A stretch of DNA of 64,000 bases from Mytilus trossulus. Lineage: Eukaryota. Below are positions 3,388 through 64,000 of this stretch, piece after piece. Both the position numbers and the translations under genes were made by a program. The notes under the pieces were generated by a model. That model made no database searches and had not been told where the DNA came from. It saw nothing but the letters and a program-made list of their open reading frames with translations. Position 1 is the stretch's first letter. Every line of letters begins with the position of its first letter. The stretch covers positions 53,630,001-53,694,000 of the forward strand of contig NC_086379.1 in assembly GCF_036588685.1 (NCBI RefSeq), read 5' to 3'.

Positions 3388-4210
3388 AGTCGTTGTAACG
3401 ACTTAGCTAACTTGTTTAAACGACTTAGCTAAGTTGTTATAACGACTTAGCATATTTATCTTGTTATAACAACTTAGCTTACTTATTTAACGACTTAGCT
3501 AACTTGTTTAAACAACTTAGCTAAGTTGTTATAACGACTTAGCATATTTATCTTGTTATAACAACTTAGCTTACTTATTTAACGACTTAGCTAACTTGTT
3601 TAAACAACTTAGCTAAGTTGTTATAACGACTTAGCATATTTATCTTTTTATAAAAACTTAGTTAACTTGTTTATACATCTTAGCTTACTTGTTTAAACAA
3701 CTTATCTTACTCGTTGAAACAAGTTAGCTAACTCGTGAAAACGACTTAGCTAAATTGTTTAAACAACTTAGCTAACTTGTTATAACGACTTGGCTAATTA
3801 CACTCGTTGTAACAACTTAGCTTACTCGTTATAACGACGTAGCTAAGTCGTTTAAACAACTTAGCTATCTCGTTTAAACAAGTTAGCTAACTCGTTAAAA
3901 CGACTTAGTTAACTTGTTTAAACTACTTAGCTAACTTGTTATAACGACTAAGCTAATTAAACTCGTTATAACAACTTAGCTTACTCGTTATAACGACGTA
4001 GCTCAGTCGTTTAAACAACTTAGCTATCTCGTTTAAACAAGTTTTGCTAAGTTTTTTAAACGACTTAGCTAACTCGTTTAAACAACTTAGCTAACTTGTG
4101 AAAACAACTTAGCTAAGTCGTTATAACGAGTAAGCGTAGTTGTTATATTGAGTTAAATAAGCTTAGTCGCTACATGTATAACAAGTTTCCTAAGTTGTTT
4201 AAACAAGTAA
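3388..4210. repeat. 22-bp self-complementary minisatellite (aacgacttagctaacttgttta) with higher-order repeats
   Basis: About 35 degenerate units. The variant gcatatttatctt recurs at 3450, 3542 and 3634 (92-bp period), and a second block recurs at ~159 bp (3794/3953). Confidence 0.9.
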
Positions 4211-6334
4211 TCAGGTTAGTTCAACGTACCTAACCTGATGACATATATTTCACGGGATGCACTTCCGGGTATAAGACTTGCAGCAACTTTTAATAGACGG
4301 CATACGAAGATACTAACCAAATGGACTTGTATGAATACGAAAGACAATGACTTTTTTCACACATAATTTTAGTCTCATTGAGGATTTCCTCATATATTTT
4401 CATAAATTTTGGGTAAAATAAGTCAAAAATTTTAATTGGTTTCAGTCAATTTTCAATTGAAGCACTTACATTTTTTTAGCATTTATTATGAAGAAAAAAT
4501 CCTTGGTTTCTTTAAATCTTGAGTATTTCTTAGAACAATGAATTTAGATTAAAATTTCTGCGATATGATATAACAGATAGATATACATTTGTATATCTCA
4601 TTTACACGTTCAACACTGTAACGGTATTCTGTTATCAATGATATATTTTCCATGCTAATGTTTTTTTCACTGAAACTGATGAGCAAAAATCTATATATCG
4701 TACACACCTCAACAAATTGGTTCCAGTTGAAGTATATTACTGTCTTTCAGTATTAAACAAAAAGATCTTAACAGTATGGAATAATAGCGTGGAACAATTG
4801 AAATTTAATATGAGGCGATAATGGCACAAGATAGAAATATAGTACCTGCATAGTTCGCATCTAGATTCTGGCTTGGATCTTTTATGAGTTTTAAATGGAG
4901 CTTTTAATGACAATTCCAGCAACGAGCATTACCTTTGAAATTCCTGAATTCTAATGATACAATATATTACTTCGTTTATTTGAAAGCATCGTGAGTCCGT
5001 ATAACTGTTTCCTTAGACATACATGTAAGTGTTTGTGTCTTTAGTCTGCTATTGGCACGATTAAAAGATGTGATTACTAAAAATTAAACATACTGAAAAA
5101 AAATTCTTTTAGGATAAAATTGCCTAAAATATAAAAAGAATCACATCATTTTCCTTTCAAAATTAGATTGTTAAACAATTATCTTTCAGATTTTATAAAG
5201 ATTTCTAATGAATGTAACCGATAACAGGTGTAATACATTGTACCACCATTGATTTCCCCCTATTAGTCTTTTTTAAATTTGCACTTTTCAAAAAATTGTG
5301 CAGAATTTATCTTTGTTTCAAATAAAGAAATACTTGGCATGAGTAAAGTTTTATCCTGTCCAGTTCTAAAGAAAAAGTTTCACATAACATTTCATTGCAT
5401 ATAAGAAAGAAACCATCATTGGAAGTTAACCAATCAAATTTCTCCCCTTATTCTATCTGTGTACAAGGTTTAGTCACCATGGGTTTACTCCTGGTTTGCC
5501 CACTTTTAATTCTACCAATTATCTATTAGTAAAGAAAACAAAAAAGACAAAAGGTTTAATGAGCATACAATTGTATAGTCTGTTCCAACTTAGGTATGGT
5601 CAGCTATATAGGTTGTTTGAGTTTTCTACATATTCAGGTTGTTCTTTTGTATAGAAAAATTATTAAAAAAATCTTAATATTTTTTCCTCATTAATTTAAT
5701 ATAAATTCATTCAACAAACATACATGTACACAACGATAACAAAAAATGATGTTCAGTTACAAAAGTGTCTTTATCTGTTTATAGTTCATTAGTTTCTGAA
5801 TGATTTTCATGATAAAATTACAGTAATAAAAGATCTCTATTATTGCAAACATAATTTAATAAATCAATCAATTTTATAAATGCATTGCATAAGGAAATAT
5901 AGGTAAAATGAGGATAAATACAATCTTTTATAGTTACATCAAACGTCACAAAACATTATATTTACAAAGTGTTCACTTCATTGTCCAGTTCAAATGGAGA
6001 AGATGGGATCGATCATGGGCTGCAACAGTTTGTGATATTCGTGCTGCAATTTTAGTACATAAACTAGATTTGTCTTTATGTCCACTCGATTTCATTACAT
6101 GTACCGAATCAGGATTAGGTAAAAAAAGAAGTAAACTTTTCCCATATTTGAATGATTTAAAATATGTTGCTTATGATGATAGTATTGTTTAAGCTTCAAA
6201 AAAGGCAACACGAAATAATTTAATATAATACAATTTAATATTTTTTTTTAATTAATTTTATCTAATGATAGTTTAATAATGTATTAGTATTTCTAGTATT
6301 GAGTTTATGCCATATTTGTTTGTTTTTATGACGT

Positions 6335-6520
6335 TTTAGGACGATGTAACCTTTAGGACTTTCCTAAGACACCTAATTGTATATCCTAACTTTAGGATCA
6401 AATGTAGGACATATCTTATTTTAGGAGACTTTCGTTAATCCGACTTAGGACTAAGACGTGTCCTAAGACCATCCTAAGACATGTCTTAGTCCTAGGACAG
6501 CTTCGTTGACACGGCCCCTG
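6335..6520 (-). mobile_element. Terminal fragment of a MITE (end CAGGGGCCGTGTCAACGAAG) with cttagg/cctaag subterminal repeats
   Basis: Dense ttagga/cctaag motifs in both orientations ending in gacacggcccctg, directly abutting a TA in the MULE fragment. The other end was not found. Confidence 0.5.
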
Positions 6521-6988
6521 TATCGTAATCTTTTTGGTGGGCGGGCTCCTCCTGTTCCATACTATTACTGGATAATGTTGCATTCTGTTAGTGCCTGTGT
6601 CTTCTTCAGTAGCTCAATGATCTCGTAGATGTTTACATGTTTGAGTCTCTTAGTTTGTTGTGCCACCCTTCCAGATGATTTGTGGTGCGGGATCCTTCTG
6701 TGTAATAGTGATTCCATAGACAACAGTAGCTTTCAACCCAGAACTCTGTCATGTATTCTGTAAATGAAGTTGTAGCGGGTATGTTTCAGTTTCTCAAATG
6801 TCTTCTTTAGTGATTAGCCAAATTTCCCTAACACGGTGGGGTGGAACAAGAGGTAGCACTGCGGCTCCTCCTATAAGTTGGGTTATGCCTTAATTTTCTT
6901 TATAATAGGACTGTAGTCCATATTTTTGTGACTATTGCCAAATACACTGGGTGAAGTGGAAGAAGCAGCCTTTCACATTAACCCCTGG
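6521..6988 (-). pseudogene. Mutator/MULE-family DDE transposase fragment
   Basis: Manual minus-strand translation across stops and frameshifts: PGVNVKGCFFHFTQCIWQ*SQKYGLQSYYKEN*GITQLIGGAAVLPLVPPHRVREIW.../PATTSFTEYMTEFWVESYCCLWNHYYTEGSRTTNHLEGWHNKL/KHVNIYEIIELLKKTQ. The GCxFH (CxxH) and WN...RTTNxLEGWHNKL motifs are hallmarks of MULE transposases. Not present in the ORF track. Confidence 0.88.
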
Positions 6989-7064
6989 TGTTGTTAGCAA
7001 TCAAGATTATTAACTGAAAAATATTTTATCGTTGTTTTTTTTTTAAAGAAAATGCTAGCTTGAA

Positions 7065-7212
7065 TGCAGATTCAGATTCAATATTTTATTAAAGTCTCAC
7101 TACTTGCAATACATAAATATACAGTACATACAGAGTATATACACAATATAAAACAGACAATACACAAATATAAAATACTAATACCATTCTATTAAGAATT
7201 ATGAGAGACTGT
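7065..7212 (-). repeat. Possible LINE 3' end
   Basis: The minus strand reads ...gagactttAATAAAatattgaatctgaatctg, an AATAAA signal followed by a short-repeat tail as in CR1/L2/RTE 3' ends. No ORF remains. Confidence 0.35.
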
Positions 7213-8387
7213 AAAACAATTTCTATATAAAACTAGTTAAAATATATACGATTACAGATTACTGTTCAAACTGTGTCATATTTATAGCTTGAATACAGAA
7301 CAGTTGCATTTATATTCTAGTTGTTAGAATTAATTGGATATGTTTTATATTAAAGTTCAGAACAGTGTATTTTATTAAAATTAAAAAAAAATATATAAGT
7401 TAAATAAAGTCAAAGATATTCAATGAGATTTATTCTAGTAAATCTTTAGTTTCATTCTTTTACTTTTTATCTTTTTTCAGATTTGTTGATAGATTGGAAT
7501 ACTAATTCATTTCAAGTGTACATTTTTTTCTAGTTTTTGTATGAATAAAATACATTTTCCTGCAAAAAAATACATAAAATTTAGAAAAGTTTTGCACATT
7601 TTCCTTGATTTAATAGCAGAATATAATGGTCTTTTAAACATTTACAGGTAAAATAAAAGGTAAAAAATATGACTATAATTCAGAAATAAACTATAATTGC
7701 TAAAACAACAATTCCCTCTATGTTTACATATACATGTAATTAAAAGTGGGCAAACCAGGATGACACCGAAATCACCGTCACCATGTAACCTCAAGATTAC
7801 AAAACTTTCTATAGAAATCACAAATAACAAATAATGGTGTTTTGAAATACCCAAGACGTACTATGTTTATGACACAGAAATAGTTTTACTGCAATAAAAT
7901 GTAGGATTAATTACCTACAACGGTCAAATTAAAGGGAATATTTTTTTATACCTACTTTCGCATGCAACCGGATGTGACGTACCATGATTTGGTGGTATTA
8001 CACCTAACAGATTTTATTTCAATTTCAAAAGCATAATTTATAAAGGAAACAGTGCAAGTTTTCAAAATCCATGAACATGTACTGAATGATCTGATAAAAA
8101 CCAAGTCGGTAGGAATAAATAAGTTTAATGATATTATTACATGGTTGTTTTTTTTATATTACATCCCTTTTCAGTAAAATATGTGATAATGGGTCTGCCA
8201 CTAATTTTGCATGATTCTTAGGCAGACATGTACAGCTACTAAATAATTATACAAATGATTGTACGTGTATAGTATATTTTGGTACAGAAAACCAGTCTGC
8301 CAAATACCAAAAATTTGCTACGCATTTTATGACTAACTATGGATTCTTTTTGCACTGATATCAAATAGTTTTAGAATTTCATGCGAC

Positions 8388-9134: not shown

Positions 9135-9392
9135 GCAGACATGAATGATCATATATGGTAATATTTATAAATTAACTGTAAATGTTATAAACGTTTGATT
9201 TTTTTTAAATACTAAGTCTTTTCCACCTCAGGAAAAGAATGAATTACATGTAAGCTGTATTTGGTAAAACTTTAAGGAATTTTGGTCATCATGCTCTTCA
9301 ACTTCGTTCTTTTTTTGGCCTGTTTAAAACTTTTTTGGATTTGAGCGTCACTAATGAGTCAAAATTTAATCCTGGTATCTATGAGTTTATTT
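9135..9392 (+). mobile_element. Retrozyme-like repeat copy with the 3' half of the hammerhead deleted
   Basis: Colinear with 30830-31097. Has gagcgtca-CTAATGA-gtc, then jumps straight to aaaatttaatcctggtatctatgagtttatt. Confidence 0.65.
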
Positions 9393-10696: not shown

Positions 10697-13491
10697 GGGC
10701 ATACGATACAGTAGAAATCCCTCGTTGATTTTTTCTTGAAATTTTGATAGAAGGTCAATTTCAGTGTGTACTTTTCAAATATGGAAAGAAAAAGGTATCT
10801 TCATGACTTACTTTTTGAGATAATTTGGTTCGAAATTTGCATATTTGGAAGAAAAACCCTGAAATTTCATAAATAAGGACTTTTAGAGAAAGTAACAATA
10901 CTTTTGAACGAAAAGTCATAACTTAACCGGGTTTTTTGTAAAATGTTCCCTGGATCCATAGCATCAACTTTATAAAACAATTTGAAGATTAAACCGATTT
11001 ATAATTTTCCGGATTTAGATTGCAATATGAGAATTAAAGAATTTGACCATTTTTTAACGTCATTTCGGAAGTGCAGAAAAAATTTGATCGTTGATTTTTT
11101 CTAGAAAATTTGGCAGAGTGTTCATGAAACAGTACTTGATTGAAATAGGGGTCCATGTGCTTGTTTTTTCAATAAAAGCCATATACCTTAATATTTTACG
11201 AGGTCTGTCAGTATGGCGCTAAATTACGTTATGTTAAGTTTTAATCGCAAAGACGTCGTATAATCGTTCCCGCCGTACAAGACTGTACTCTCAATTATGA
11301 TTATATGCAGGTGTTCTCAAAAGCGTTGATACTTATCACAAAAACGCATATGATGGTTCCTTGTTAAATGGCAAAACATTTGTGCTAAACATTTACGAAA
11401 CTACATTTGGACAGATTAGTATTTATTGTAAAATTTAGAATAGGGAATGTGTAAAAGAGACAACGACACCACCAAAGAGCGAACATAATTAGAAAAGCCA
11501 ACACCCAGAGGCGGGCTTCAGATGGCCCTTAAATAGATGTGTACTACACATGTAGTTCAATGGAAATAGACGTCACACAAAACTCCAAAACTTGTCTACA
11601 TGTACACGTACAAATGTATAATGATCGTACGGTGAACTTGACTGTCCTTTTGGTAGGGTTTGTCTGAAATTGAACCTTTTTTCGTGTTTCATTGGTTAGT
11701 ACATAAATAGGTTCGATTCGCAGCTACCATCAACTATTTTGGGTATAAAGACTGATAGTAAGGTGTTTATGTCATTATTAATTTTCAAAGTTCATCATTT
11801 TTAATAGCTCATTTCTCATTGCAAAGTGTTTATTATTAAGTTATCTGAACAAAGGGCGGAAAATTTTGACAGCAACATTTCAAACGAAGTGTAGGCTGAA
11901 AAGGGACAACACAGTTGGACTGCCACTGGAAAAGAAAGGAAAGTCGAATAGCAGCAGAAGTTCTTCAATGTAACAGACCATCTACGGATCTGTTAAGAGA
12001 GTTTGAATACGGTTCTTCGACGTACAGGGAAAGTTTCACTCCTCTTACAAAAGGATTTCAGTTTTAACGTTAAATGTCCCATTCCGACAAAAAGAAACCA
12101 AGTAGAGTATAATTCAGGCTTATTTAAAATCATGTGTTTTATTTTTTAACGCTTGAATTTTGGCGATACGTTATTTGTAGAAAGCTAATTTTGTATGCTA
12201 CAATATATATCGTGTTTAACATGTTTTGCTTCTGACATCAGTCATAATATTTTTTTGTTTATCTTCTTAAATATGATTGATTCCCCTCTTCAATCTGTTA
12301 TCATCTATAATACTCCGTAATGATAATCAGAAAATAACAAAAAAAGAATGATTAGTTATGGGAACCTGCAAATTGTTGATAACATATATAAGGTACACCA
12401 TAGTAACAAACCACAAGCATATTCTCTACTGAACATTACCATGCATTAACACATAAGATACAGTTACAGGGTTACAGACTTTTGAAGATCGTATTTTTCA
12501 GTCGTTATCAGCATCTTATGAATGTCTGTAAAATATAATGTGTCTCGTAAAAATAAATGGATCGGTATTTCTCACCTTATCTGTTATTGTTATGTCAAAA
12601 ATACACCATACACATATTACTGATATTTTTAAACTCGGGCAATACTTTAAATCTTTTAACAGTTAGGGATATCATTAATTTAACTGACATAGTTCTTTCT
12701 TCTGTTAACAATTTTAAAGTGTTAACTGACCTTTCGTAAAATACTTCCAAATGTTTTCTGATTTGACTTCGTGAAACCTGTAAGATTTACAAAAAATAAG
12801 GAGATGTGGTATGATTGTTAATGACTATGCAATGCAAATATAAGCCTTTTCCCGTCATATTTTAATCATCAAATATCTCGAAAAGGAGGTCCATGACCTA
12901 TCAATATTTTTTGCGTATTTTGATTCTCAACCAATGCTCCTTTGACCTAAAGTATCAATTTAAAATTCTTAATTTTTTGAATTTCACAAACCCTCACCTA
13001 AGTACATCCTTGGAAAAGCGAGTTCATAGACCCCTCTTTTTTTAGAATGACATTTGGTTTGATTACGTTTGACGAATATTTGTACCAATTTTTATGAAAA
13101 CGTAAGTAGTTCAATTTTAAAAAAATGGATAAATGTACAGGAAAAAAATGACTTTTTTTTTCTACATTCATGAACATTTAAAAAATATGAGTTATTTGTA
13201 AAAATATAATTCATAAATTTATATGCCATTTATATGAAACCAGAAATTACAAATAATTTAGCAAAACACAGCTTTTTAGAATAAAAAATTTCGTATTTTT
13301 GTCAAAATGAAAAATACGGCCACAAATCCTAATTTTGAGTAAATATCCGAAATGTCGACCTCATTTTACTAAAAAAAAAAAGCACATGAAGATATATTTT
13401 TTATTACATATTTGATTTAAACAGGTAAAAAATAACCTGTATGGAAATGTTCATCAAAATTTAAACCGGATCAAAACTGTAGCCTATGCCC
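10697..13491. mobile_element. Kolobok-like DNA transposon (~2.8 kb, non-autonomous or decayed)
   Basis: TTAA|gggcatacgatacagt ... actgtagcctatgccc|TTAA: a 16-bp TIR with 2 mismatches, purine-purine start and TTAA TSD (piggyBac termini normally start CCC). Contains a nested SINE-like piece near 11430-11590. Confidence 0.75.
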
Positions 13492-17354: not shown

Positions 17355-17570
17355 AAAAGAGAGACGAAAAATACCAAAGGAACAATTATCAAAGTCATCA
17401 ATCGAAAATAAACTGACAAAGCCATGCCTTAAAACAAGACTAACAGACACACAGATAAACAACAGTATTAAAAACACAACATAGAAAACTAATAACTGAG
17501 CAACACGAATCAAAACACAAATTGGGGGTGATCTCATGTACTCCGGAAGGGTAAGCTTCACATGTGTCCC
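17355..17570 (-). repeat. Solo 3' end of the Penelope-like element (diverged)
   Basis: aaaagagagacgaaaaataccaaagg...ggggtgatctcatgtactccggaagggtaagc is the reverse complement of 29440-29646. Confidence 0.85.
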
Positions 17571-18324: not shown

Positions 18325-18617
18325 ATGCATTATCACGTTGTGATTGGTTAAACGCCGTCACGTGGTGACCCCCTATGAGACCGTATGGGGTTAGTTAGTT
18401 TCATATGGGGTTCGTGACGCATTAATGGCGACGTCATCTATTAATGTTGTTGTGTTTCGTTGTTTATTTTTCAATAAATTCGTTATACGATTAACCACTG
18501 ACCCCCTACGGATCCATAGTGGGTGAATAAAATTCATAGGGGACTCGGCCTCCGGCCTCAACCCCTATGGATTTTACTAACCCTCTATGGATCCGTATGG
18601 GGTCAGTAGCGAACCAT
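18325..18617. repeat. Long-hairpin element B
   Basis: ~110-nt hairpin at 18497-18607 (actgaccccctacggatccatag.../...ctatggatccgtatggggtcagt), preceded by tgattggtt, gtcacgtg and a shortened copy of the stem. Confidence 0.8.
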
Positions 18618-18627
18618 ATAACTTATA

Positions 18628-19057
18628 ATGTTTTTCAATATTAGCGGAATAAAAATCCTGTCCAAATATCCACTGCTGTTCTTCCTCTTATTGTGTTTAC
18701 ACTGTATAATTCTGACCTTCACATAATTCAAGATTATTTGAACGGTGGAATCCGACATTGTTAATATCGGAAGTGTTGCCATGGAGTTCCACGTGCTCTC
18801 TATTTGTTTGTGTCTCTCGAAGCTTTTCCTAATCTTTGACGTAAAAAGCGCGGGAAATTGTATCATCAATGACAATGATATTACCAGAGAGTAACGAATG
18901 GTATGGAATAAGGGATCCTCAAAGAGACCAAGATGGCGGTTTTACAATGTAAATAATCTTGAAAAATGTGAAGGTCAGGATTATACAGTGCAAACACAAT
19001 AAAAGGTAGGACAGTAGTGGATAGGATAGGGTTTTATTTCCGCTTAATGAAAAACAT
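18628..19057. mobile_element. Fold-back MITE with ~110-bp TIRs
   Basis: 18628-18740 (..agcggaataaaa..ttattgtgtttacactgtataattctgaccttcacataattcaagattattt) is the reverse complement of 18952-19057. Confidence 0.8.
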
Positions 19058-26183: not shown

Positions 26184-28074
26184 CAATTTAAATTATATCG
26201 TTTTTCTTTTTCTTTTACTCTTACAGTATCAGTTTTAATTTTTCGACTAGTAAGTTTGAATGTCCTTTTCGTCTCTCTCTTTGATATCCTCTCATATTGT
26301 TTTAACTTTTAAAATGCAAATATAGCACATACAGCGTCAGGATTTTATCAAATAAATCATGAGATCAAAGTTTATTCTTTTCAACTACGTGTCTAGAAAC
26401 ACATGTTCCAGCAAAACTGACGGCTATAATTCAACAGCATTGAAGAAAGAAAAATTAGCTGTCAAAACCAAAAGACAGAAGATGTGTGGGTAAAATCAGA
26501 TGCACTTACATAAGTGCTTTGTAAATCATTGCACTGATTTTGGAACCAAAATAAAATCAGCAGGTATAATGATTGTTTATCACTTGTGAGAATACGAACT
26601 ATTACTTAAAATCACAAAAGCATACAAAATTGACAGCTAATAAATATATCAAAACTTTATTTGAAATTAGAGCGATAAATCTAACAAAGATTTTTCATAT
26701 TAAAAATCTTTTGTCTCTATATTCGTTTATCGTGAACATCTACTGAGCTAGTTATGATTAAAATCAACTCTTCCCTCGGTATAATTCAAATTTCACTGAA
26801 AATTATCAAAGGACGAAAAGTGATAAAAGTAATGAAATGGAAATTACTTTCAGAGATGCTGATAAAAATGACAGATGTTTGCCAAAGACAGACATTTTCT
26901 TTTCTTGTGACGCTGTTGGAAAGCAAACTAAAGATGTAAGCCATTGTGAATCGATGGCAGCTACAAATTCTTGATAATAGAAAGGTTTGAATGGTCAGCG
27001 ACCGCCTTATTTATAAGTGACAACAAATCATTTGTATAATGGAAGGTTAACTAATAACACTGAACAAATATTGTTTCTTTTTCCCTGGGAGAGATCAAAT
27101 TAACATTGATTCTTTCTTATAACAAACGACAGTCCATACTTGGCTAAGAAAATATATCCTGTTTGTCTCATGGGCTTTTAGTTTCTACATTAAATTCTTC
27201 TGTGTCCACTGCTGTCGTAATTCTGGAATATAATATTCGGGTTTAGCACTTGTTAAGAGAATAAATCTTTCAACGAATTATTCAAATTACCAAAAGATCT
27301 TTTTTTGTTTTAAACCATTACCATACAGTTCTCATAAACATAATAATTTTCTTTTCGATGCACATGTCGGTCTCAAAGGAGCTTGAGATAAATTAATAAA
27401 TTGTGTTCTCAAAGCAGTAAGAAAATAAACGACTTCTATATTTTCCTAAGAACTTGTTTTTCCGAAATATCATCCTTATTCATTTCATAGTCAACGTGTT
27501 ACAATGTTTCTGGAAACTATCATACGAGGTGGTCGGCGATTCGTTTAGAAAACAAGCATTCCCGTTGATACAGATTTTAAGTACACACTTGGAGTTGTTA
27601 ACTATTCAAAAATAGAAATAACAAAATACTAAACTCTACAGAAAAACAAATCGAAATGAGCGACCTATGAATTTATGCAACAATTAAAAGACCTTTTTGA
27701 AAATTGTTTTAGTTTATTCATTATAGTCGATGACCAACATTGCACCTATTCAGAGACTCAGTTCGATTTTATTATTTTACTTTCAAACACCTTAGGATAA
27801 CAGCTTGATATTTCAATATCCAATATTTGAAATGCATAAACAATATATATCTGCAGGTTCCCCTTAATTTCTAATTAGGATGTTCGATATTCTTCATTTG
27901 AATTTGGTTCATAGCAATGAATGCCAAATAAACTAATCATAGATACAAGCATTGACATTTTGTATTAGCGCCAGACGTGCATTTTGTCTTAAAAAAAATT
28001 AATACTGGGTTTGATAGTGAATTTAAAAAAATTTACATCTACATGTAGCAATTTGGCACCACTTGTACCCTTTA

Positions 28075-40586: not shown

Positions 40587-43500
40587 ACAAATATCCAAGT
40601 TAGAACTCAATGTACATGAAGTCACAAATGAATGATTACACTATGCTTTCAATTATATAAAATACATGACAAGACATATAAATTGTTACAAAATAATGTT
40701 GTTTTGTAATTATCAGACAACATGGATTGTCTTAATTATTTGAAAATTACATTTGCAGTTATCAAAAGAATATGTCATAATTTTCCCGAGGAGAAATGAT
40801 TCGTACCAAGTAATCAATAAAAAGGTCAAACATTTGCCATAGAAAGTAAATTGTGTTTTACTGATGAAGAAGATATAGTCAATGCAATTTTTCTACTTAA
40901 TCATGTTTTCAGTTTAGTTTATTGTATTGTAATAAACTTCATGACCAGATAATGATTACTTTTAAAATTACATGATGTCTACATGCGTGCAAAAATGCAT
41001 TTGAAGTTAACAAGGCATTTTATAGTTAATCTAAAAGAAAAGTGTTTTGTTTGTCGCATTTTAAATTGCTAATTTATTGCAGTACTTCTTCTTTATGATT
41101 TGGTTTATTTTGACGCCAGCAGATCGGCTATTCATACAAAAATCTAAGTTTAAAATACCGAATCAACTCTCTGTACTCTATATGAGTGTTTATTTTAAAC
41201 GTTCACTTATAAATTAATAGTAGATTTATGCTCAATTTGTTATGTATTTTTATCACCGTTTTTATTGAATATGATTTGTTCACTATTTACATGTTTAAAG
41301 TGCATTTTTTTCCCCTGACATTTTGACATTGACTGTTGTTATACGTCACGCCAGAGGAGGTGGTATAAAAAGAGCGATTACCTGGGACCTAAAAATTAAT
41401 AGATAATATTAGGTTGCTTCAAAAAAAATATATAGAATTAAAATTTAATATTTTTTCTCAAACATTTCCGCATTTAAAATAGAGTAATAAAGTTACAAAA
41501 AGATAGAAATAAAGATATTAAAATGAAATTATGATAAAAACATGATATCAACAGACAGCAAAGCAAAATATAATAAATATTAATTCATTAGGTCGAAACT
41601 TATTAGATACTATGCCTATGATTTAAGTATGTCAAACACGCGTTTCAACTATCACAAATTGGGTGTTCGAAGCTTACAAGTAAACTTTTAATGTTTTCTT
41701 GGTAGGAAGGAATATAAAGATAGTTGATAAATAATTAATGAAAAAAAAAATCAAAATTGTGATTTTCTGAAAGACAATGAGTCTATGTTCGAATGTATTA
41801 TTCAAACCAGTCAATTATACAAATGGTACTTTGAGATCTGAAGTTAGTTCAATGATTTAATGTGAGAAAAACGGCATTTAAAATTCGATTTTCATTAAGT
41901 CTTAATGGATAATTTCTGATACCTAATTGAAAACTCTGAAAATGACTGTTTATAAAGGTAATAGACTGAGAATGTTTAAGAAATTTTATAATTAAATGAA
42001 AATTTGGTTTTCGAGAACGCTTTTGGCATCAAATGGCCAAGTTATCTGATGACACTAAAATGAAAAGCTATAGAAAAGTGCTTTTGTTCTTTTTATGTGA
42101 AAGTATCAGTAACCTTCAGCATTGATCATAATTTCAAACCTTTTCACACTATGTAATACAAAATGAGAAAAATCTTCAATACATACTATTGGCAACCCAT
42201 TTAATCGCTAAATACACCTTCAAATTGTTTAAGGATTATTAATGTATGTTGTAGCTCAATATAGCGGTTTGTCATTCTCCCCTTAAACACCTGTTTGGTA
42301 AATTTTGAAGGAAGGACCAACAATAGCACAATACGTATATGGTACATGTATATTGTCAAATATAAACCGCTCGACACAAGGTGAAAATCATTATCTGTTA
42401 ATGAACGAGCAAGCATAAGCCCTGCGCTCACTCGACAAAAGTTTACATTTTGTAAACATCAAAGTTGTGACTGATGGTTAACGACAGAAATGTGTAGAAA
42501 ACCCAACAATCTAAGATACCAACTTGCACCCTTTCACAGGTAAGATCTGCCTTAAACATCATACTATCTTATTTCGTGTCGGTTAGTTTTTACTATTCTA
42601 CAGGCACCTTTTACTTTACTGCAATTTCTTCTTGAGTGTACACAAGTCATTTCGTATTCGATACATTGAAAAAACTAAAATCACAAAAGTACTGAACTCC
42701 GAGGAAAATTGGAAAAGGAAAGTCCCTAATCAAATGTCTAAATTAATACTCGAACGAATGGATAACAACTGTCATATTCCTAGCTTTTTCTTATTGCAAT
42801 CATATACATGTATCATCTGATACTATTTAATGTAAAAAAAATAACAACATTTATTGCAACTTTCAAATATTTAACATTTATTTTCAAGTTATATTATTGC
42901 AATGAGTTTTAAAACATTTCGCATGAAATTCAATTGACATACAATGTACATAACTAAATACATCTTGTTAATAAATGATTTTATTATATAATATAACCGT
43001 CTCTGTTGTACCCGATGATCTCATATATCAGAGGTTAATTGTAAAGACATGTTCTTACATTTACATTAAATACAATGTATATAGAAAATTGCAACATCTT
43101 CCTCTCTTTCAGTATGCACAAAGTGAAAACATTCAAGTGTTAATTGTGTTTTACAAATTGCTTTAGTTTTAACAGATCGATCAAGATATTTGGCCTTGTT
43201 ATATTTTGTTTCAGACTTGATTTACGAAAATACTCGGTTAGTTCAAAGTGTTTTAAGTTAAAAGTTCAGGAAACTTACAGTTATTTTGTAAAATGAGACT
43301 TCCGCTTTTATTTCTATTTGTACCTTATTTGTCATTAGTTTTTGAGTGGTCAATGGTCTAGATAACTATTAATTCCCTATTTTCAGTACTTAAAAGCAAG
43401 AAAAACATGACATACATTAATGATCAATAATAGCATGATCAGTGAAAGAAAAACATCACGAATAATGTAAAAGGTTACGAACATAAAATGCTTGTCAAAG

Positions 43501-46742: not shown

Positions 46743-46802
46743 TTAGAGTTTATAATTTACGTGTGGCTTTATCAAAGATAATAATAACACTGAATGGTGA
46801 CC

Positions 46803-51634: not shown

Positions 51635-53305
51635 TTTTTATAATATATGTTTTTTCGCATAAAATATATGTTTAGTGGTAAAAATTGTAGGAATCATGTG
51701 TAACAACACAAATCTGATCGTCAGCAAAGTACATACATGTATGTAATAAAAATGGTAGAGAACCAACCATGAATCGTCCTATTTTTTTATATAGATTAAC
51801 TTGATTTTTTTGATTTTTTTTTAAATTCAATCAAGACATTTGAATTTTTGACAGGCATTTATATAAAAAAAATGTTATGTACGACTGTTACACCGTTACC
51901 AACAAAGTATATCAATCTAAGCTCGTAAAAGCTCAAACATAGCAGTTTGTTTCGCGCGGGAGTTTGTAGTTAAACGGTTGAGTATGTTATACCCCATAAG
52001 GAGTATCCATACCATTAATATAACAATATCAGCGGATTCGTTATAAAATATGATCTTTTTCAATTATTTTGAAAAAACTGTTCAGCCTTATTTGGCATTC
52101 TGTTCTTATCGACATTTTGGTCTTATCTTCAACCATGCTCCAGTAATGATTGCCAAAACAGCATGATGTCGATTTCCGATCGCATCAAGTATGCTCTAGA
52201 CCAAACTATAATGTCGATTTCTAGATGTTAGTCATGATATGAAATAGACATAACTTTATTTGTGATATTTACTTGAAGTTCATAAATAAACTCGGAAACA
52301 AAAGAGATTTTTTAATTTTTTTAATTTTTGGAATCTTCATTTTTATTTAGCAGCGAATAAATGTAGATTATATCTGTCTGATATTCCTGACTATGTGTTT
52401 TCCTCAGTATTTAATTTTGGAAGGAATGATCCTTAAAATAAAGCTACCGAATCAAATATGCTACATGGTATTTTTATAATATATGTTTTTTCGCATAAAA
52501 TATATGTTTAGTGGTAAAAATTGTAGGAATCATGTGTAACAACACAATTCTGATCGTCAGCAAAGTACATACATGTATGTAATAAAAATGGTAGAGAACC
52601 AACCTTGAATCGTCCTAATTTTTTTTATATAGATTAACTTGATTTTTTTGATTTTTTTTTAAATTCAATCAAGACATTTGAATTTTTGACAGGCATTTAT
52701 ATAAAAAATGTTATGTACGACTGTTACACCGTTACCAACAAAGTATATCAATCTAAGCTCGGAAAAGCTCAAACATAGCAGTTTGTTTCGCGCGGGAGTT
52801 TGTAGTTAAACGGTTGAGTATGTTATACCCCATAAGGAGTATCCATACCATTAATATAACAATATCAGCGGATTCGTAATAAAATATGATCTTTTTCAAT
52901 TATTTTGAAAAACTGTTCAGCCTTATTTGGCATTCTGTTCTTATCGACATTTTGGTCTTATCTTCAACCATGCTCCAGTAATGATTGCCAAAACAGCATG
53001 ATGTCGATTTCCGATCGCATCAAGTATGCTCTAGACCAAACTATAATGTCGATTTCTAGATGTTAGTCATGATATGAAATAGACATAACTTTATTTGTGA
53101 TATTTACTTGAAGTTCATAAATAAACTCGGAAACAAAAGAGATTTTTTAATTTTTTTAATTTTTGGAATCTTCATTTTTATTTAGCAGCGAATAAATGTA
53201 GATTATATCTGTCTGATATTCCTGACTGTGTGTTTTCCTCAGTATTTAATTTTGGAAGGAATGATCCTTAAAATAAAGCTACCGAATCAAATATGCTACA
53301 TGGTA
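51635..53305. repeat. Recent head-to-tail duplication of an ~835-bp unit (51635-52470 and 52471-53305)
   Basis: The copies are identical apart from about 5-6 substitutions and homopolymer length differences. Confidence 0.97.
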
Positions 53306-53661
53306 AATTTAAAGCCATGTATTTGACCATTGTACAGACGCCATCATGACTTGAGTTACGGAAAGTACTCATAATGCTACGGCTGTGTTTAATTTGTTTT
53401 AGCCTGTCGATGAATCAGTTATCCCTTGTGGTGTTTTATTCTTTGGTCAACGCGACAGCTTGATTTTTCTTCCTTAAAGCTAACAAAAATCTTTAAAATT
53501 TGTGTCAATATAGAACTTCATCCTCTTGAGACAACAGAAAGTGCACCATCTGCAAACACAAACGTAGACACTTTGTATCCTTTTATAAATGTGTCGTAAA
53601 TTATAAGACAGAACTTGCGTTCTATGACGTGTTTAAATATAATATCTCAGTAATTGTCTTA

Positions 53662-56600
53662 AGCCTCGGTCACAGCTTATCGGATAGCACGAACGGATGT
53701 CTAGCGGATGAAATTAAAAGTTGTCCGTTTAAAAAATTTATATCAGTTGAGAGTCCGTTGATGTGCTGACCAAATATAACGGACGCGTAAAGGATGCATA
53801 ACGGACACAAACCGGGTATGCAACGTATGAGAAACGAAAACGTAACGTCTAACGGACATGAATGGATTGAAAAAAAAAGTTATCCGTTAGGCATCCGTTG
53901 GAACTATCCGTTAAAGGTGTGACCGAGGCTTAACGGTTATTTTTTTTTTCAATCCGTACATGTCCGTTCTTATTCGTTAGACGTCCGTCCATATCCGTTG
54001 CATGTCCTATTAGCATACGTTTTATCCGTCGACGTCCGTTCTGTCCGCTGGAAAGCTTCGGTAACACATAAACAGATAGCTCGAACGGATGCCTAACGGA
54101 TAACTTTTTTTAGCTCACCTGGCCTAAAAGGCCATGTGAGCTTTTCTCATCACTTGGCGTCTATCGTCGTCGTCGTCGTCGTTAACAATTTTTCAAACAT
54201 CTTCTCCTCTGAAACTACTGAATGGATTTAAATGAAACTTAGCATGATTGTTCCATAAATTATCCTGCATAAAGTGTGTGCTTCGATTTTTGATCCGTCA
54301 AAAAACATGGCCGCCGTTACTTAAAATAGAACATAGGGGTCAAATGCAGTTTTCGGCTTATATCTCAAAAACGAAAGCATTTAGAGCAAATCTGTCGAGA
54401 GGTCCAAATGTTCATTAGGTCAAGATCTATCAGCCCTGAAATTTTCAGATGAATCAAACAAACCATTGTTGGGTTGCTGCCACTTAATTAGTAATTTTAA
54501 GGAAATTTTGCAGTTTTTGGTCATTATCTTGAATATTATTATAGATAAAGATAAACTGTAAACAGCAAAAATGATCAGCAAAGTAAGATCGACAAATAAG
54601 TTTATATGACCAAAATTGTCAATTGACCCCTTAAGGGGTTATTGACCTTTAATGACAATTTTTCACCATTTGTTCATCATATTTTCTAACTTTAAAAAAT
54701 TTTCTCCTCTGAAACTACTGAATGGATTTGAATGAAACTTCGCACGATTGTTCCTTAGATTGTCTTGCAAAAAGTGTGTGCTTGGTTTTTTGATCCGTCA
54801 AAAATCATGGCCGCCGTTACTCAAAATAGAACATAGGGGTCAAATGCAGTTTTTGGCTTATATCTCAAAAACGAAAGCATTTAGAGCAAATCTGACATGG
54901 GGTTAACATGTTCATTAGGTCAAGATCTATCAGCCCTGAAATTTCAGATGAATCAAACAAACCATTGTTGGGTTGCTGCCACTTAATAAGTAATTTTAAG
55001 GAAATTTTGCAGTTTTTGGTCATTATCTTGAATATTATTATAGATACAGATAAACTATAAACAGCAAAAATTATCAGCAAAGTTAGATCTATAAATAAGT
55101 TTGTCAATTAAGGGGTTATTGACCTTTAATGACAATTTTTCACCATTTGTTCATCATATTTTCTAACTTTAAAAAATCTTCTCCTCTGAAACTACTGAAT
55201 GGATTTGGATGAAACTTAGCAAGATTGTTCCTTAGATTATCTTGCAAAAAGTGTGTGCTTGGTTTTTTGATCCGTCTAAAAACATGGCCGCCGTTACTTA
55301 AAATAGAACATAGGGGTCAAATGCAGTTTTTGCCTTATATCTCAAAAACGAAAGCATTAAGAGCAAATCTGACATGAGGTTAACATGTTCATTAGGTCAA
55401 GATCTATCAGCCCTGAAATTTTGAGATTAATCAAGCAACCCATTGTTGGGTTGCTGCCACTTAATTGGTAATTTTAAGGAAATTTTGCAGTTTTTGGTCA
55501 TTATCTTGAATATTATTATAGATACAGATGAACTGTTAAAAGCAAAAATGTTAAGCAAAGTAAGATCTACAAATAAGTCAATTTGACCAAAATTGTCAAT
55601 TGACCCGTTAAGGGGTTATTGAACTTTAATGTCAATTTTTCACCATTTGTTTATCATGTTGACTCACTTTAAAAAATCTTTTCCGTTGAAACTGCTGTAT
55701 CAATTTCAGCTAAACTTAGGCTAAATGAGTTTCAGAGTATCTAGTACAAATTTTATATTTCATTTCCTTGTATGTCAAGAAACAAAGCTCCTATGGCTAA
55801 AATAGAACATAGGAGAAAATCATTTGTTTTGCTTTTGAAGAAAATAGGACGATTCAAAGAACATTTAAATAAATTGAAAAGCCAAAATAATCATTGATGA
55901 GAGATTTAACCAAAAAAATTAAGGTGAGCGATTTAGGCTCTTGAGAGCCTCTTGTTTTTTAATCCGTTCATGTTCGTTAGACGTCCGTTCTTATCCGTAA
56001 GACGCCCGTCCATATCCGTTGCATGTCCGTTTAGCGAACGTTTAATCCATCAACGTCTGTTCTGTCCGGTGGAAAATTTTGAGCATGATCAAAACTTTTA
56101 ACGGACGTCCAACGGATGAAATGTCAGTTGAACGTCCGGTAGGCGTCCGTTTTGTACGATACTCGTCCGTTTCGTTTCCGTTTGTTTCCATTAATTGTCC
56201 GTCAAAATGCATGGGAGGTTTGGAAGGGTAGAGAAATTCACCAATGGACTTCAGACGGACGTCTAACGGATAAAACGAATGTTGAATGAATATGAAACGG
56301 ATTTCTTTCGGACGTATAACGGATAAAACGGACGATGAACGGATCTGAAACGGGTTAGTGCCAATTGAAAATATCGAGTCAGAAATACCAATTAGTTTTC
56401 TTAAGGTTCATGAATTCTTATTATTCATAATCAACCTAAGAGTAAGGGCACATCTTCACAATCAAGCAGCTCTTATTCAGGCCAGACTCTGCCCTTTGGC
56501 GGCATTTTTAAGAGAAAAAAAACAAAAACAGTTACCCAGAAACATTTTGAATATTAAGTCGATTTACATGTTTTATAATTGTCGTTTTTAATTTTTCCGT

Positions 56601-56882
56601 ACATCTTGTTAAACCGTTTTATCCGGTACGCTTCCGTTAGGTGTCCGTTTTATGCGGTACTCGTCCGTTGGATGTACGTTCGACATCCGTACTGTCCGGT
56701 ACGTTTACGTTCCTCGTTCGTTGCATATTCGGTGTGTGTCCGTTATGCATACGTTACGCGTCCGTTTTATTCGGTCAGTACATCAACGGACTCCCAACAA
56801 ATATCGATTTTGTCAACGGATAACTTTTATTTCCATCCGTTAGGCGTCCGTTCGTGCTATCCGGTAAGATGTGAACGAAGCT
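53662..56882. mobile_element. Composite Harbinger-like MITE cluster (aacgga/tccgtt-rich), flanked by TTA...TTA
   Basis: 53662-53930 is an internally deleted copy (agcctcggtcaca...tgtgaccgaggct). 53931-54053 is an inverted fragment. 54054-56882 is a longer copy in the opposite orientation (agcttcggtaacaca...tgtgaacgaagct) interrupted by a Helentron-type insert. 53662-53845 and 56700-56882 are ~185-bp inverted matches. Confidence 0.8.
54112..55954 (+). mobile_element. Non-autonomous Helentron/HINE-type element with internal tandem repeats
   Basis: Inserted in a T-run. Subterminal inverted repeat gctcacct (54113)/aggtgagc (55922); 5' hairpin gctcac-c-tggcct-aaa-aggcca-t-gtgagc; (cgt)n microsatellite at 54166-54183; ~3.3 central repeats of ~480-500 bp (starting ~54200, 54700, 55177, 55677); 3' hairpin aggctc-ttga-gagcct then cttgttt. 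Confidence 0.88.
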
Positions 56883-59800
56883 TTAACAGTTTAAAAACTA
56901 ATGAGGACGTATTTAGACATGCATATTTAGGGATGCATGTTTGGGTACGAAAAATATTATTCACTAATTTTTACTTTAATATTGGAAAATGTATTTGTGC
57001 TTCGTGTTTTCTGAAATAAAGCTTGCTGCTATCACTCCTTTAAAGAAATGTTTTTTATTTTTTATTTCATTTCAAGAAATGCAATCAGTAATAGAGACAC
57101 TTGATGTTACATAACACCGAAAGTCGATAATGTTGAGAATTAAAACTACATATTCGTCATTGAGAGAATGTTTACTTTTGTTTCCATCAAATAAATTGAA
57201 TTAGAAATAAGAATTTACATTATACAAAGTAAGGAAAACTGCAACTTTAAAGCCTTAAATGAATGAGTTATTTGAATTCAATGCCATGATAATTCCTATT
57301 TATTAGTCTTTGGTATCTTTACTTAATCTCGACTGCATGGTTTTAATATAAGTTTAATTAGTTTAAACACATTTGTAAATATACACCACAGTAGTGTAAT
57401 TAGTTCATGATGTCTTAAAAGTTTCTTCAAAAACCAGTGAAAACTATTCACTTTTCTGCACACGTTATCAATATAAACAAGTCGGGTTAGTATAAAAATA
57501 CATTTATTTCCTAATTTCAATAGCAATTTTCTTGTCAATTCAAACTCTTCTATCGAATAGAAGATTTGCACTTTAAACCCATTGTTAAAACGTAAATTCA
57601 ATTAAGATTCTAAATCATTTGAAAAAATTGTACGGCCCTTGATAAATGTTTGTTCAAAGTGAAATTCATTGACACTCGACACCATTAGAAAAAAAAGCAA
57701 TACCATTTTATGATTTTCTTTTCACGTTAAACTTGTCAATGAAACTAAATGATACAGTATTTATTAATTAGTTTTCCTGATAAATATTTTTTTAGTATTG
57801 ACACATACGTAACACACCCACTAAATGTTTGGAAAAGTATCTTAGATTTTATTGTTTTTCCTGTAATCATTTTGATTAATATTTTCTTTTTGAAATAGGA
57901 AATGACACGGCTGGAACGTGTAACATATACATGGTTTCACAAACACTTATTCTTCCGCACCGAATTAAATTGGAAGGTGCTTATTATAATAAAAAAAAAA
58001 TCAAGAATGTTAAGTGATCAATTCAATCTGCGTTGAAACATGTTGAGCAGTTCCTTCATATTTTTAAACAGTTTAAATTGACTTGTGAATGCAAATGAAA
58101 ATGCAAAGATGCAATAATTGAAATGTTCATTGGTTATATTACCATGATGAAACGGATAAGTTCAATCATTTGAGAATGGGCTCACGATAGTAACATACGA
58201 ATATTAATAACATCATGCATCAACGAAAATGGATGATGGCAATATTCTCTGACTTTCAATCAACTAATAGCAATAAGAAACCCTCTCCTGTAAATGAACA
58301 AGTCAACATTAATGTTCCAATTGTTTCTTATTTTTGATTTGTACACGTTTAATATCTCTAATGTAAAATCTTCTTTTGAACTCAATCTATCAAATAGTTA
58401 CAACAAACACCGCTTTATGAACAGCAAGCAAATTGAATGGGACATTTTGTTTGACAGTTTTTATAAAACACCACGACTGTCACAAGGATTAAACAAAGTC
58501 CATACAATCATGAACGAAGAGTATTTGTATATTACGGTTGGTACTGAAATTATTACGTACGAATGAATTTTTAAAAAAAAATACCATCGATTTTATATTG
58601 TTTTAACGAATTATAAAACTTCGTCATTGCACTTTGTGATTTTCGTATATCAACAGTTATCGGGGACTGTTAGACGTTATTATAATAGTCTAGGCTCTTA
58701 ACCATATATTAAGTGGTTTATCGAGTTTAAATGCAATACGGTTAATATGCCATTTGTTTTAGGAAAAACTCCCTTGATCGAAATATTGGCCCATTTATCG
58801 GTTAAAAAAGTGAAAAAAATACTGTCATAATTATCACAGGTTTATTCACGGATATTTTGGAGTAAACTGCATTTATCTGTTCCAATACGTCATAACGAAC
58901 ACTTCCTACATCCAAAACCATCCTATATGTATTGTTGAGAACAATATAGCAATTAAATATCATATTTTAAAGAACACATGTTTAACACCACAACTTTTAG
59001 AAGTATGCTAATTTATGTCTCATTTACAAGTATTGTGAAAAATAAAATCAGTAAGCAATGATAATTGAATATTGAAAACAACCGATTCAAATGGATTTCA
59101 AAAAAGGCATGTAGGAAATATCTTAGATTTACACCCATAAAAATTCAAATTAAATTTCCACAAAACTTCATATTAAAATAGATTTATTTTATAAGAATTA
59201 ACATTTTGTTATTTGATTTTCACATAATTCAGTTCTGATTTAGATTTCTTGTTGATCTTTGCCATCTTTTCTTTTTTATTTATCTGCTTGGTTCTTTCTT
59301 TATTGGCTTCGAACATCTTAATTAAGTTCTAAACAAAATTCAATGTCCTAGGCTTGACGCCTAATGAATCATGTGTTTACCGATAATTATGTTTCATTCT
59401 ATTTGAAGTAATTCTGTTACATAGTTGATCAAGTTTTACAGTCCTGCTTGCACTAGAAATTATTTTATTTCAAAGCATTAATAATTTTAGTTTTCTGCCG
59501 GAAGAAAATTCTAAGAATATAACAATTTGTTTGAAACTTCCTTCTCAAAATATATAAATTGTTACATTAGTTTGTTTTATTGTTTTGAACTATGGTTCAG
59601 TAAGCTTTGATCTAACATTTTGTACTATGAATGATTTATATTGACAAATAGGTTTTACGAAATTGTTACAACCAAAATGATGGAACGCTTAGCCACTTTG
59701 ACATAAATACTTTGACACAAGTTAATGATTCACCTGAATATGCACAGATTAACATACAGTCATTATTAAATAATCATATCATAGTTTAAGTACAACTTGA

Positions 59801-60925: not shown

Positions 60926-61499
60926 AACAAACACGCTAATTAAACGTTGCTTTTAACATTCACTGATCGCGTAATACTTTGTATAAAACTGTGGGAATGA
61001 GTTTCCGTACAATTTAGCGAGAAAGTAAACTACAGGTTGGCCTACATGTATGTCCATGTCCTGCTACCAAGTCAAATTCTAAATGGTTGATTTCTACACA
61101 AAATATTTTTATTAAATAGTTTTATGACTTGTACTGTAAAAATACAACAATACATTTTAAGTTGTACTCGGCTCGAAAAAGGATATAAATAACTGGCAAA
61201 GTCTGGCATCAAACCAGTTTATTAAGCCTTCTACAAATAAGTTTTATATTTTGATGCCATGTCTAGTTAGATTTTTGAAGCACTGCCAGGATGTAGTCTT
61301 CCCGAGACCTAGGCAAATTCATTACTTAATTCCATGCATAATAATTCGTTAAAGATACGTGATTTTTCAAATTTTAATTATTTTATTAGTCATGCCCTGC
61401 TTGCAAAACATAAATTTGCATAGGTACACTATTCTTGATGATATATGCGATCTCACGGAAATCGACACGATAAGTACTATAATCACTGACGTCGAATTG

Positions 61500-61660
61500 T
61501 GCCTGGGTGCCCGAATGATCTAAGTATTGTATCTACTGTATACCTAGTCCGCTAATACTTAAGTTGATATTTCGAACTTCGCACGTGGTAGTTGCTTTCG
61601 ACTCTAATCTTCCTCTACCAATAAAACCTGACCGTGCAGATAACTGTGGCAGACTTTTTG
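61500..61660 (+). repeat. Decayed tRNA-derived SINE head
   Basis: A-box-like ggtgcccgaatgatctaag and B-box-like tttcgaacttc about 60 bp apart; no intact cloverleaf. Confidence 0.4.
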
Positions 61661-64000
61661 TACGAGTATTTTGATGTTATGTTCTATCCAGACTGGACGT
61701 GGCTCTTCGTGTAAATATCTGACTTATCGAACGACTACTCAGAAAGATGTTAATGCCTGCTAAGAGAAGTCCATGTGACTATATTTCTATTCCCAAGTCA
61801 ACCCTTTGAGGATTTTAGATTGCAACCTAATGGATTTGTCGGTTTAATATTAGTCTATATTTTTATTGCATCACAAAATAATGGTTAATTCATGTTTTAC
61901 ATATCATTTTATTTGTCCGAAAATCTATAAGTGGTTTTCTTGATAGTTGAGACACATTTGTTCATTTGAGTCTTACATTCAGGTGAACCTCTGCTGTTCA
62001 TCATTTTTGGATACATATTCCCCAACAGGGACAACAGAATAGCAAAACCTATCAATCAAAACAATTTACACAACAATAACATTATCTTGGGAAATTTAAG
62101 ATGAAACAACACAGAATAAAGATGTTGTTTCTTTATCTCTTCGTGCAAAATATGAATAAAGTTAGCTTTAATTTCATTAAGTATTCAAGACACTTACCCG
62201 AGAGAACAAAAACAAACAATGAAATATTATACTACGAAGAACTTGCATGAAATACAATAAATAAAACCACAACTTGTGCTCAACAACCTAATTTTACAAG
62301 TTATATCTTGCCGATCATACCCGTAAATCTAATTAGTCTGATACAGAGTGTATTTATCATTCAATTATATCATTCCGTATTAAAGTAACATTACATTAAA
62401 ATAATGTTTAATAGGACACAAAGTATTCGGCTATTCTTTGGTTGCTTGTCTGAACCAATGCGAGTGTGAATGTTTCTGATTACTTTGCAGTCTTTTTTTT
62501 TTAAATAGCTAGGTCTAACTGTCAAGGTAGGGTATTATACATGTACCTAACATATGCAGCTAGCAGGCAAGCTATTCAAATGTATTACCTTTACCTACAT
62601 ACCCTATGCATTTTACTGTTACAGCTATTCAAATTTTGTGTAGGTTTTGGATATTTTTTTATGTTGACCTCGAACATCAATGAAAAGAAATTTATTGTCA
62701 ATATGTGCATCTCGTGCAGTAAAGATGCATTAATGTATTTTATAACTAAATTAAAAAAATTGCATTTGGTTTATTATTGCAGCTCACTTATTTTAATATT
62801 ACCATAAAACAATATAGTTTCAACTGATAAGATTTCGTTAAAATGAAAATGATTTGAAAATATTCACTTAATTCATTTTATGACAGATAAGTCAGTATAT
62901 TCAAATTTGATTTACATTGAGTAAACAACGGATTTAGTTGTTTTTAATTCATTCATAAAATCAAACAAATGTCCAGTTTACTCTAATTCTATAATTGTAG
63001 ACACAAATTAAATAGTAAGTATAATAAGTCGAAGAGAATTTGTCAAAGAAAACAGACATGTATCCCAAATGCTGAAATTCATTGCTATAAGCTAATTATA
63101 TCAATACAGTTTATTTCAATTTATTTTCTTTAGACAAGGATATTATATTGAACAATGTAATAAACAGATACCATCTATATTCGGTCAGTGAGTTAAACCC
63201 GTGATGTCTATATATTTGATTACACTATCTAGACAATTCGTCGACAGTTACATTAAATGTGGTCCATTGTCTTCAGCAGACGGTCAAATAATATCTGAAT
63301 TATTACAAAATATTTTCTTCAATATATTTCGATGCAACAGTCTCTTACGAAAGTGTTTCACTGAATTTATTCAAGTTAGACGTTAGAGAAGGACTGAAAT
63401 GCATTAAAATTGACAGACCACTTTAATATAGGAACAACAACCTGATCAGTATCTATAGAAAAGGTAATCATTTGATATACTAAAAAGGAATCACTAAAGT
63501 ATTCGTCAAGATTCAATATTTAAACTTTGAAGTTTGAAATTCAAAATAAATTTTATTTTAATTCAAATTCCAATATTCAAAGTAGCCTCTCAAAAGAAGT
63601 ATGTTATGTTGTGAAGGTGAAAAGCCAGCAAAATGTCTTGGAACAGATTAAAATTAAATGAGATAAAATTTTATTACATGTGCAGTACAAAAATGAAAGT
63701 AAGGTCAGTGACCTTCTAACTTAATATAATAACAAGAGCTTACATGAAATCTTCATTTTAACGACTTTTTGGTTGTCTTTACAAAAAGCAATGGCGACTT
63801 GGAGCCTTGGAAACAGGAAAAAGTGCTCAAGCCTAATTTTCTAAATTTTGGCGTGATCAAATTATTTATCTACAACGAAACCACAGACAAATGACATGAC
63901 AGTGGTTTTATTCAATTGGACAAGAAGATGTGTACTGCAATTTTTCATAGAGACAATAGCTACGTTACATTATCTAATAAATATAAACAATCGTGTTATT

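Follow-up and report, generated by a model that had tools for sequence, protein, structure and literature searches.

Excess of palindromic TACA...TGTA words in a Mytilus trossulus genome window: candidate excision footprints of a Tc1/mariner-type transposon

The window and its TACATGTA words

The current analysis concerns a 64 kb stretch of the Mytilus trossulus genome (contig NC_086379.1, positions 53,630,001 to 53,694,000; "the window" hereafter denotes this whole stretch, and all coordinates are counted from its first letter), in which the palindromic word TACATGTA occurs far more often than expected. The window is rich in repeats and has a G+C content of 31.4%, which corresponds to 68.6% A+T and agrees with the approximately 68% estimated in an initial annotation made from the letters alone. 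A Pfam scan of its 118 stop-to-stop frames of at least 62 residues detected no gene, as the weak matches in 4 of the 118 frames all fell under the curated cut-off, the sole sensible one being a reverse transcriptase at 28695-29138. Exact copies of TACATGTA lie at the 14 positions reported by the initial annotation, all 14 of which were recovered, and there are no further copies in the window. They are listed here, with no strand assigned to any of them (strand.).

4171..4178, strand., TACATGTA: +6, CATGTA following the TA of the array, where a 22-bp minisatellite ends
5020..5027, strand., TACATGTA: ACA directly before; no paralog in the window
5721..5728, strand., TACATGTA: within element 5227-8004; no paralog in the window
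6096..6103, strand., TACATGTA: within element 5227-8004; no paralog in the window
7731..7738, strand., TACATGTA: TACATA before; abuts the inner inverted repeat of the element, whose other arm diverges here
9245..9252, strand., TACATGTA: in an interspersed repeat
11597..11604, strand., TACATGTA: 4 nt from TACAAATGTA (11609) and 52 nt from TACACATGTA (11545)
28040..28047, strand., TACATGTA: just upstream of the reverse-transcriptase repeat
42343..42350, strand., TACATGTA: no paralog in the window
42805..42812, strand., TACATGTA: CATA before; paralogs stop about 25 nt short of the word
51730..51745, strand., nested TACA-TACATGTA-TGTA: exact word at 51734
52566..52581, strand., duplicate of 51730-51745 through an 836-bp tandem duplication: not independent
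61043..61050, strand., TACATGTA: TGTC directly after; no paralog in the window
62538..62545, strand., TACATGTA: no paralog in the window

Thirteen of these words are independent, the copy at 52570 having arisen from 51734 with the duplication. Among 100 dinucleotide shuffles of the window, the mean count of TACATGTA was 2.41 and the maximum was 6, with none reaching 14. Markov models were then applied to the 60,220 bases left after the tandem arrays had been masked along with the second 836-bp duplicate. Against the 13 words observed, models of order 2, 3 and 4 expect 2.53, 2.33 and 3.50, respectively, and 13 was reached in none of the 200 simulations run for each. The 2 to 3 copies initially expected are close to the 2.3-3.5 given by the models. 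Self-trained models of order 5 and 6 raise the expectation to 5.8 and 9.6, but models of such order absorb the word itself. The excess is also specific, with TACATGTA ranking first among the 136 words of the form TA-N4-TA and first among the 136 alternating pyrimidine-purine 8-mers, the remaining 135 of which occur at expectation (223 versus 238.8). Its one-mismatch neighbors are not enriched, as their 12 classes total 62 versus 55.6 expected, and TACTTGTA is the top class. The exact sites are clustered, with 7 of 13 lying within 7.4 kb (p ~0.01).

Decay of CpG in TACGCGTA or TACACGTA, or simple compositional chance, could be the source of such an excess, and the slight over-representation of CA (1.19) and TG (1.16) is in keeping with it. 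Nonetheless, the ratio of observed to expected CpG is 0.91, the putative precursors are found 0 times versus 0.2 expected (TACGCGTA) and 2 times versus 1.8 expected (TACACGTA), and the enrichment survives the order-2 to order-4 models. With CpG barely depleted and the precursors not in excess, CpG decay was rejected for this window, and this explanation as a whole is extremely improbable. The initial annotation had considered that its signal might vanish after correction for CpG decay and dinucleotide bias; the excess persists. The TACATGTA excess is genuine and specific, since neither CpG precursors, nor other alternating words, nor other palindromic stems are comparably raised, such that CpG decay, purine-pyrimidine runs and a general palindrome bias all fail to explain it.

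A wider family of spaced words

The excess is not confined to the exact word. The longer forms TACA-N(1-3)-TGTA occur 23 times versus 7.6-8.3 expected, a number reached in 0 of 200 simulations, and the counts of TACA followed by TGTA at rising distance run 14, 7, 9, 7, 8, 2, 4 and so on versus a background of about 2.6; the nested site together with its duplicate accounts for 4 of the 8 pairs at distance four. When all 256 four-letter stems are compared, TACA comes first both for abutting inverted pairs and for pairs spaced by 1-3 nt. As the longer forms are likewise in excess, the signal is best described as a family, TA-CA-N(0-3)-TG-TA, with an excess in 60 kb of about 10 exact and 15 longer words (about 26 altogether). 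The initial annotation had recorded the exact word and one near variant, and both stand. It missed the forms longer by 1-3 nt, which are about as numerous in excess, and the extension of the excess to TACA-N(1-3)-TGTA is new. The longer forms begin at the following positions, although about 8 of the 23 are expected by chance and are indistinguishable from the remainder.

2554, 4584, 5234, 5566, 11545, 11609, 15843, 18698, 18943, 20974, 22282, 23871, strand., TACA-N(1-3)-TGTA (n=23 with the next line)
30027, 30682, 42444, 42940, 43071, 44224, 45951, 46964, 50070, 60232, 62342, strand., TACA-N(1-3)-TGTA

Longer forms show a weak tendency to lie near exact words, with 9 of 23 found within 500 nt (p 0.02), a tendency that fades at 1,000 nt (p 0.14) and 2,000 nt (p 0.11). 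Taken together, all 36 exact and longer sites are overdispersed (p 0.008). Spacers reading A(i)T(j) were at one point taken as a sign of untemplated A added to both ends. This was dropped: the pattern fits 16 of the 17 spacers composed only of A and T, yet it also fits 92% of 2-nt and 80% of 3-nt spacers between any CA and TG.

Insertion at TA

Whether the words arrived as insertions can be judged where a second copy of the surrounding sequence exists. Of the 37 sites (14 exact and 23 longer), 5 had a second copy across the site according to BLAST, and a sixth, 5234, was compared by hand; 10 of the 13 exact sites have no second copy in the window for comparison. Two features listed here serve these comparisons.

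3386..4208, strand., 22-bp quasi-palindromic minisatellite: reference for site 4171
18698..18706, strand., TACACTGTA: aligns to TGCACTGTA without a gap, a substitution

At 4171, six bases were gained at the TA of a minisatellite unit, judging by the best four of 24 spanning alignments to inverted units. The unit reads GTCG-T-TA-TAACAAG versus GTCG-C-TA-CATG-TA-TAACAAG at the site, such that the extra CATGTA after a TA described by the initial annotation corresponds to a net 6-nt gap plus one adjacent substitution. This region is about 80% alike to the units, and weaker alignments put the gaps elsewhere. The minisatellite itself consists of near-palindromic units, shows higher-order periods (92-93 and 159 nt) and contains recurring 5-nt insertions. 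The second case is the near variant noted in the left end of element 5227-8004. Here, 5234-5242 reads TACATTGTA, in which CATTGTA follows a TA, and comparison with the right end confirms a +7 insertion at 5236-5242. Both insertions duplicate a pre-existing TA. At 9245, the lone paralog (30829-31027) carries a larger deletion at the corresponding position and the comparison is ambiguous. The words at 51734 and 52570 form a pair of copies that both carry the word and provide no contrast; the nested form described earlier at 51730-51745 is present as TACATACATGTATGTA, and 52570 is its duplicate. The underlying 836-bp tandem duplication (51635-53311, ~98% identity) is younger than the nested TACATACATGTATGTA. 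Insertion at TA is thus supported where it can be compared, at two sites, with one counter-example among the longer forms (18698). The contention that the word interrupts older repeats is shown for one exact site (4171) and one variant (5234) only.

These comparisons bear on two other explanations. Slippage in purine-pyrimidine runs, or the correction of hairpins at quasi-palindromes, might create the word, which is both purely alternating and palindromic and is adjoined at several sites by ACA or CATA; a mildly raised reversed control, described below, would also fit. However, the other alternating 8-mers are at expectation, no other four-letter stem has a comparable excess, and the ancestral unit at 4171 contains no CA or TG to duplicate, so we give this process little credence. 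Equally doubtful is the notion that TACATGTA is a selected protein-binding site kept across non-coding DNA, of the Iroquois/Irx type or for a MYB protein as in Phytophthora. TACATGTA has been named as a preferred Irx site and as an abundant Phytophthora promoter motif (PMC3520976, PMC11134190), and ACAnnTGT, which appears in Irx papers, would cover the forms with 2-nt spacers. Selection for binding sits poorly with words that came in as insertions, one within a minisatellite and another within a transposon end, with one-mismatch neighbors that are flat, unlike those of a degenerate site, with 1- and 3-nt spacers that are raised as well, and with a window in which the Pfam scan detected no gene.

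The element hosting the 5234 insertion is 2.8 kb long and non-coding, with 15-bp terminal inverted repeats that start with GGTG and read GGTGTAATACCACCA, a 5-bp direct repeat TAACA outside its ends (5222-5226 and 8005-8009), and a perfect 23-bp inner inverted repeat (5489-5511 / 7738-7760) about 250 nt from each end. Besides the word in its end, the element contains four more TACA...TGTA words. With its GG ends and 5-bp direct repeat, it was rejected as the parent of the words and is rather their host. Nested within it at 6340-6520 are short palindrome-rich TAGGAC/GTCCTA repeats terminating in CGGCCCC, which resemble the end of another small transposon.

Probable excision footprints and alternative explanations

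Based upon these features, the excess words are probably footprints left in the germline by the excision of a Tc1/mariner-type DNA transposon that has CA...TG ends. Tc1/mariner elements insert at TA with duplication of the TA, and their excision leaves 2- or 3-nt 3' overhangs from which footprints arise by end joining (PMC3878927, PMC8151067). For Tc1 itself, the overhangs are 2 nt long and non-complementary (PMC4490562), and TACATGTA is a recorded, albeit rare, Tc1 footprint in Caenorhabditis elegans (PMC3520976, citing Eide and Anderson 1988). The superfamily was the richest of the DDE superfamilies in 21 of the species of a mollusc survey (PMC10294476) and is abundant in bivalves generally; the accessible text of a study on mollusc Tc1-like elements (10.1101/656579) gives no end sequences. 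In the proposed mechanism, a transposon would enter at TA, duplicating it, and excision would leave a 2-nt 3' overhang CA on each flank. If the ends were mostly rejoined end to end with both CA overhangs retained and filled in, TA-CA-TG-TA (+6) would result, whereas 1-3 extra bases at the joint, perhaps untemplated or left by a deeper cut, would yield +7 to +9. Such joining could derive the whole +6 to +9 family from one element type. Each scar would also create a new TA, and repeated visits would then produce patchy and sometimes stacked sites. TACTTGTA/TACAAGTA (8 versus 3.9) and TACAGGTA/TACCTGTA (4 versus 1.9) are slightly raised across the window, and these may represent decayed scars, or else one-ended footprints of 4 nt.

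The step from insertions to Tc1/mariner excision is made from the shape of the words and is most likely, but unproven; the transposon, the repair route and a shared origin for the sites lacking a second copy are what we infer from it. This has consequences for the initial annotation, whose scar hypothesis is sustained in its insertion at TA at two sites, while for its attribution to Tc1/mariner the window has yielded neither parent nor transposase. Several observations weigh against the footprint interpretation. Firstly, direct evidence of insertion comes from 2 sites only (4171 and 5234), and the 9-nt variant TACACTGTA at 18698, which lies in one arm of an inverted repeat, aligns gap-free to TGCACTGTA in the opposite arm, as would a substitution. 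Gap-free alignment had been named at the outset as an argument against scars, and it is found at this variant, but not at 4171 or 5234. Secondly, comparison of repeat copies in the window and nine related loci gave 206 clean insertions, of which 7 rows are 6 nt long and represent 4 distinct events, only 1 of these events being a TACATGTA scar; the initial suggestion that 6-bp insertions have a systematic source is not demonstrated by these counts. Thirdly, the word is absent both from 4.5 kb of young repeats and from the related metagenome contigs (17 kb). Fourthly, at spacings of up to 6 kb the window contains no conspicuous pair of inverted repeats with TA|CA...TG|TA ends, the candidate pairs having been dismissed as chance or as parts of other repeats, and Pfam recognized no transposase family among the 118 reading frames. 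Fifthly, neither the +4 word TACATA (70 versus 79.4; a comparison of low power, in which a dozen extra copies would be hard to see) nor the +5 word TACAGTA (15 versus 11.9) is enriched. Lastly, the contrast with controls is weakened by the reversed form TGTA-N(1-3)-TACA, which is mildly raised (14 versus ~8, p 0.03-0.04), possibly through stacking of sites, and AYA precedes TA in 8 of 26 half-sites versus 5.8% of all TA, whereas other alternating TA...TA words have it in 9 of 56 (p 0.15). Lacking a significant gain over these, the flank preference was dropped as proof of transposase targeting.

Some of these observations are also compatible with true insertions at TA from another source, such as a different TA-targeting element (a Minos-like one having CATG ends with 4-nt cohesive overhangs, or one having CAT ends with 3-nt overhangs annealing at AT) or an element-free repair process. 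This would fit both the insertions and the missing +4 and +5 scars, and the failure to find a parent with CA...TG ends in the window is in its favor as well. Minos leaves a 6-bp footprint (PMC10992017), and by analogy a CATG-ended element would explain +6 neatly. However, a CATG cohesive end covers +6 only and not the +7 to +9 excess, while CAT ends predict TACATATGTA, which occurs 0 times in the window unless the nested site at 51730 started as one. Furthermore, we know of no element-free process that adds CATGTA at TA. On balance, we consider another insertion source unlikely.

Comparison of the presumed Tc1/mariner-type scars with known systems indicates that they work like a known footprint, yet are not the Tc1 or Sleeping Beauty footprint proper, since the typical spectrum of these elements is absent and the element is not in the window. 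C. elegans Tc1 is alike in the TA duplicated around CA...TG, in the recorded TACATGTA and in the 2-nt overhangs (PMC4490562). It differs in that the +6 footprint is rare and +4 is typical of somatic excision (78%; PMC13148408), whereas +6 and +7 to +9 are in excess in the window and +4 is not. The initial annotation was right that Tc1 can leave TA-CA-TG-TA, but overlooked the rarity of +6 among C. elegans Tc1 footprints. In addition, germline breaks in the worm are for the most part repaired by copying or, with varied deletions, by polymerase theta (PMC4490562), whereas the presumed scars of the window are fixed in the genome, with about one in every 2-3 kb. Sleeping Beauty and Frog Prince share the TA target and a short uniform insertion derived from the element ends by end joining (PMC3878927, PMC8151067), but their footprint is C(A/T)GTA, +5 from 3-nt overhangs, and TACAGTA/TACTGTA is found 15 times in the window versus 11.9-15.4 expected. 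The letters of the Minos footprint derive from the ends of Minos and are not CATG. Minos is similar as a Tc1-family element that adds six bases at TA (PMC10992017), and dissimilar in having no series of longer palindromic forms. Phytophthora motif-1 is the identical word, TACATGTA, with a genome-wide non-coding excess; it was taken as a transcription-factor site, the footprint idea having been raised and then, in the accessible text of that study, set aside without an indel test (PMC3520976). No report of such scars spread across the genome of a mollusc was found in a literature search that covered subscription journals and Repbase reports thinly. The kind of scar is known, its spectrum and density are unusual, and its cause is unproven.

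A bolder reading, which we consider less likely than not, is that germline repair of Tc1-type excision breaks in this mollusc and in other marine animals keeps both overhangs and joins them end to end with 0-3 bases added. The resulting scars, re-targeted and stacked, would outnumber the surviving elements, would make up a fossil record from which past excisions can be counted, and would be a leading class of small-insertion polymorphism. Genome surveys count only insertions and therefore hardly see the excision of DNA transposons. If this reading is true, a uniform scar in about every 2-3 kb of non-coding DNA would provide a direct count of past excisions and show the germline repair route, such that excision rates and the choice of repair could be read from genomes alone. 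Some of the small-indel load of mollusc genomes would be explained as well, and TACATGTA "motifs" from promoter scans could be mutational in origin. Conversely, should haplotypes lack indels at these sites, the excess would be merely an unexplained word bias.

Other repeats were encountered in the window. A broken reverse-transcriptase repeat at 28049-29650, which we take to be Penelope-like from its motifs, has partial copies at 25604-26206, 39333-39574, 23315-23476, 17355-17556 and 35-131. Copies 92-96% identical to it exist in marine metagenome contigs (L002, L004, L006, L008 and L009), and the window copy lacks 12 nt found in three metagenome copies. Searches for copies of the window repeats yielded 0 matches in viral contigs (0 of 8 candidates confirmed), 0 in genome contigs apart from 2 chance bacterial matches, and 9 short loci (17 kb) in metagenome contigs, mostly of the reverse-transcriptase repeat and none spanning a site. 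The nested 16-mer occurs at 10 loci in viral contigs that show neither additional excess nor any resemblance to the window, an uninformative result. At 53659-56884, an element with 187-nt inverted ends (53661-53847 / 56697-56883) contains a 477-bp tandem array (54191-55578) and TCCGTT-rich repeats, with TTAA-like sites at its flanks. A young 38-bp tandem array of 12 copies (98% matches) lies at 35477-35931, and two tandem duplications with periods of ~925 and ~1929 nt overlap at 22562-25461. Lastly, long imperfect palindromes of 100-190 nt are present at 3060-3159, 18482-18622 and 46364-46546 and are possibly small fold-back elements.

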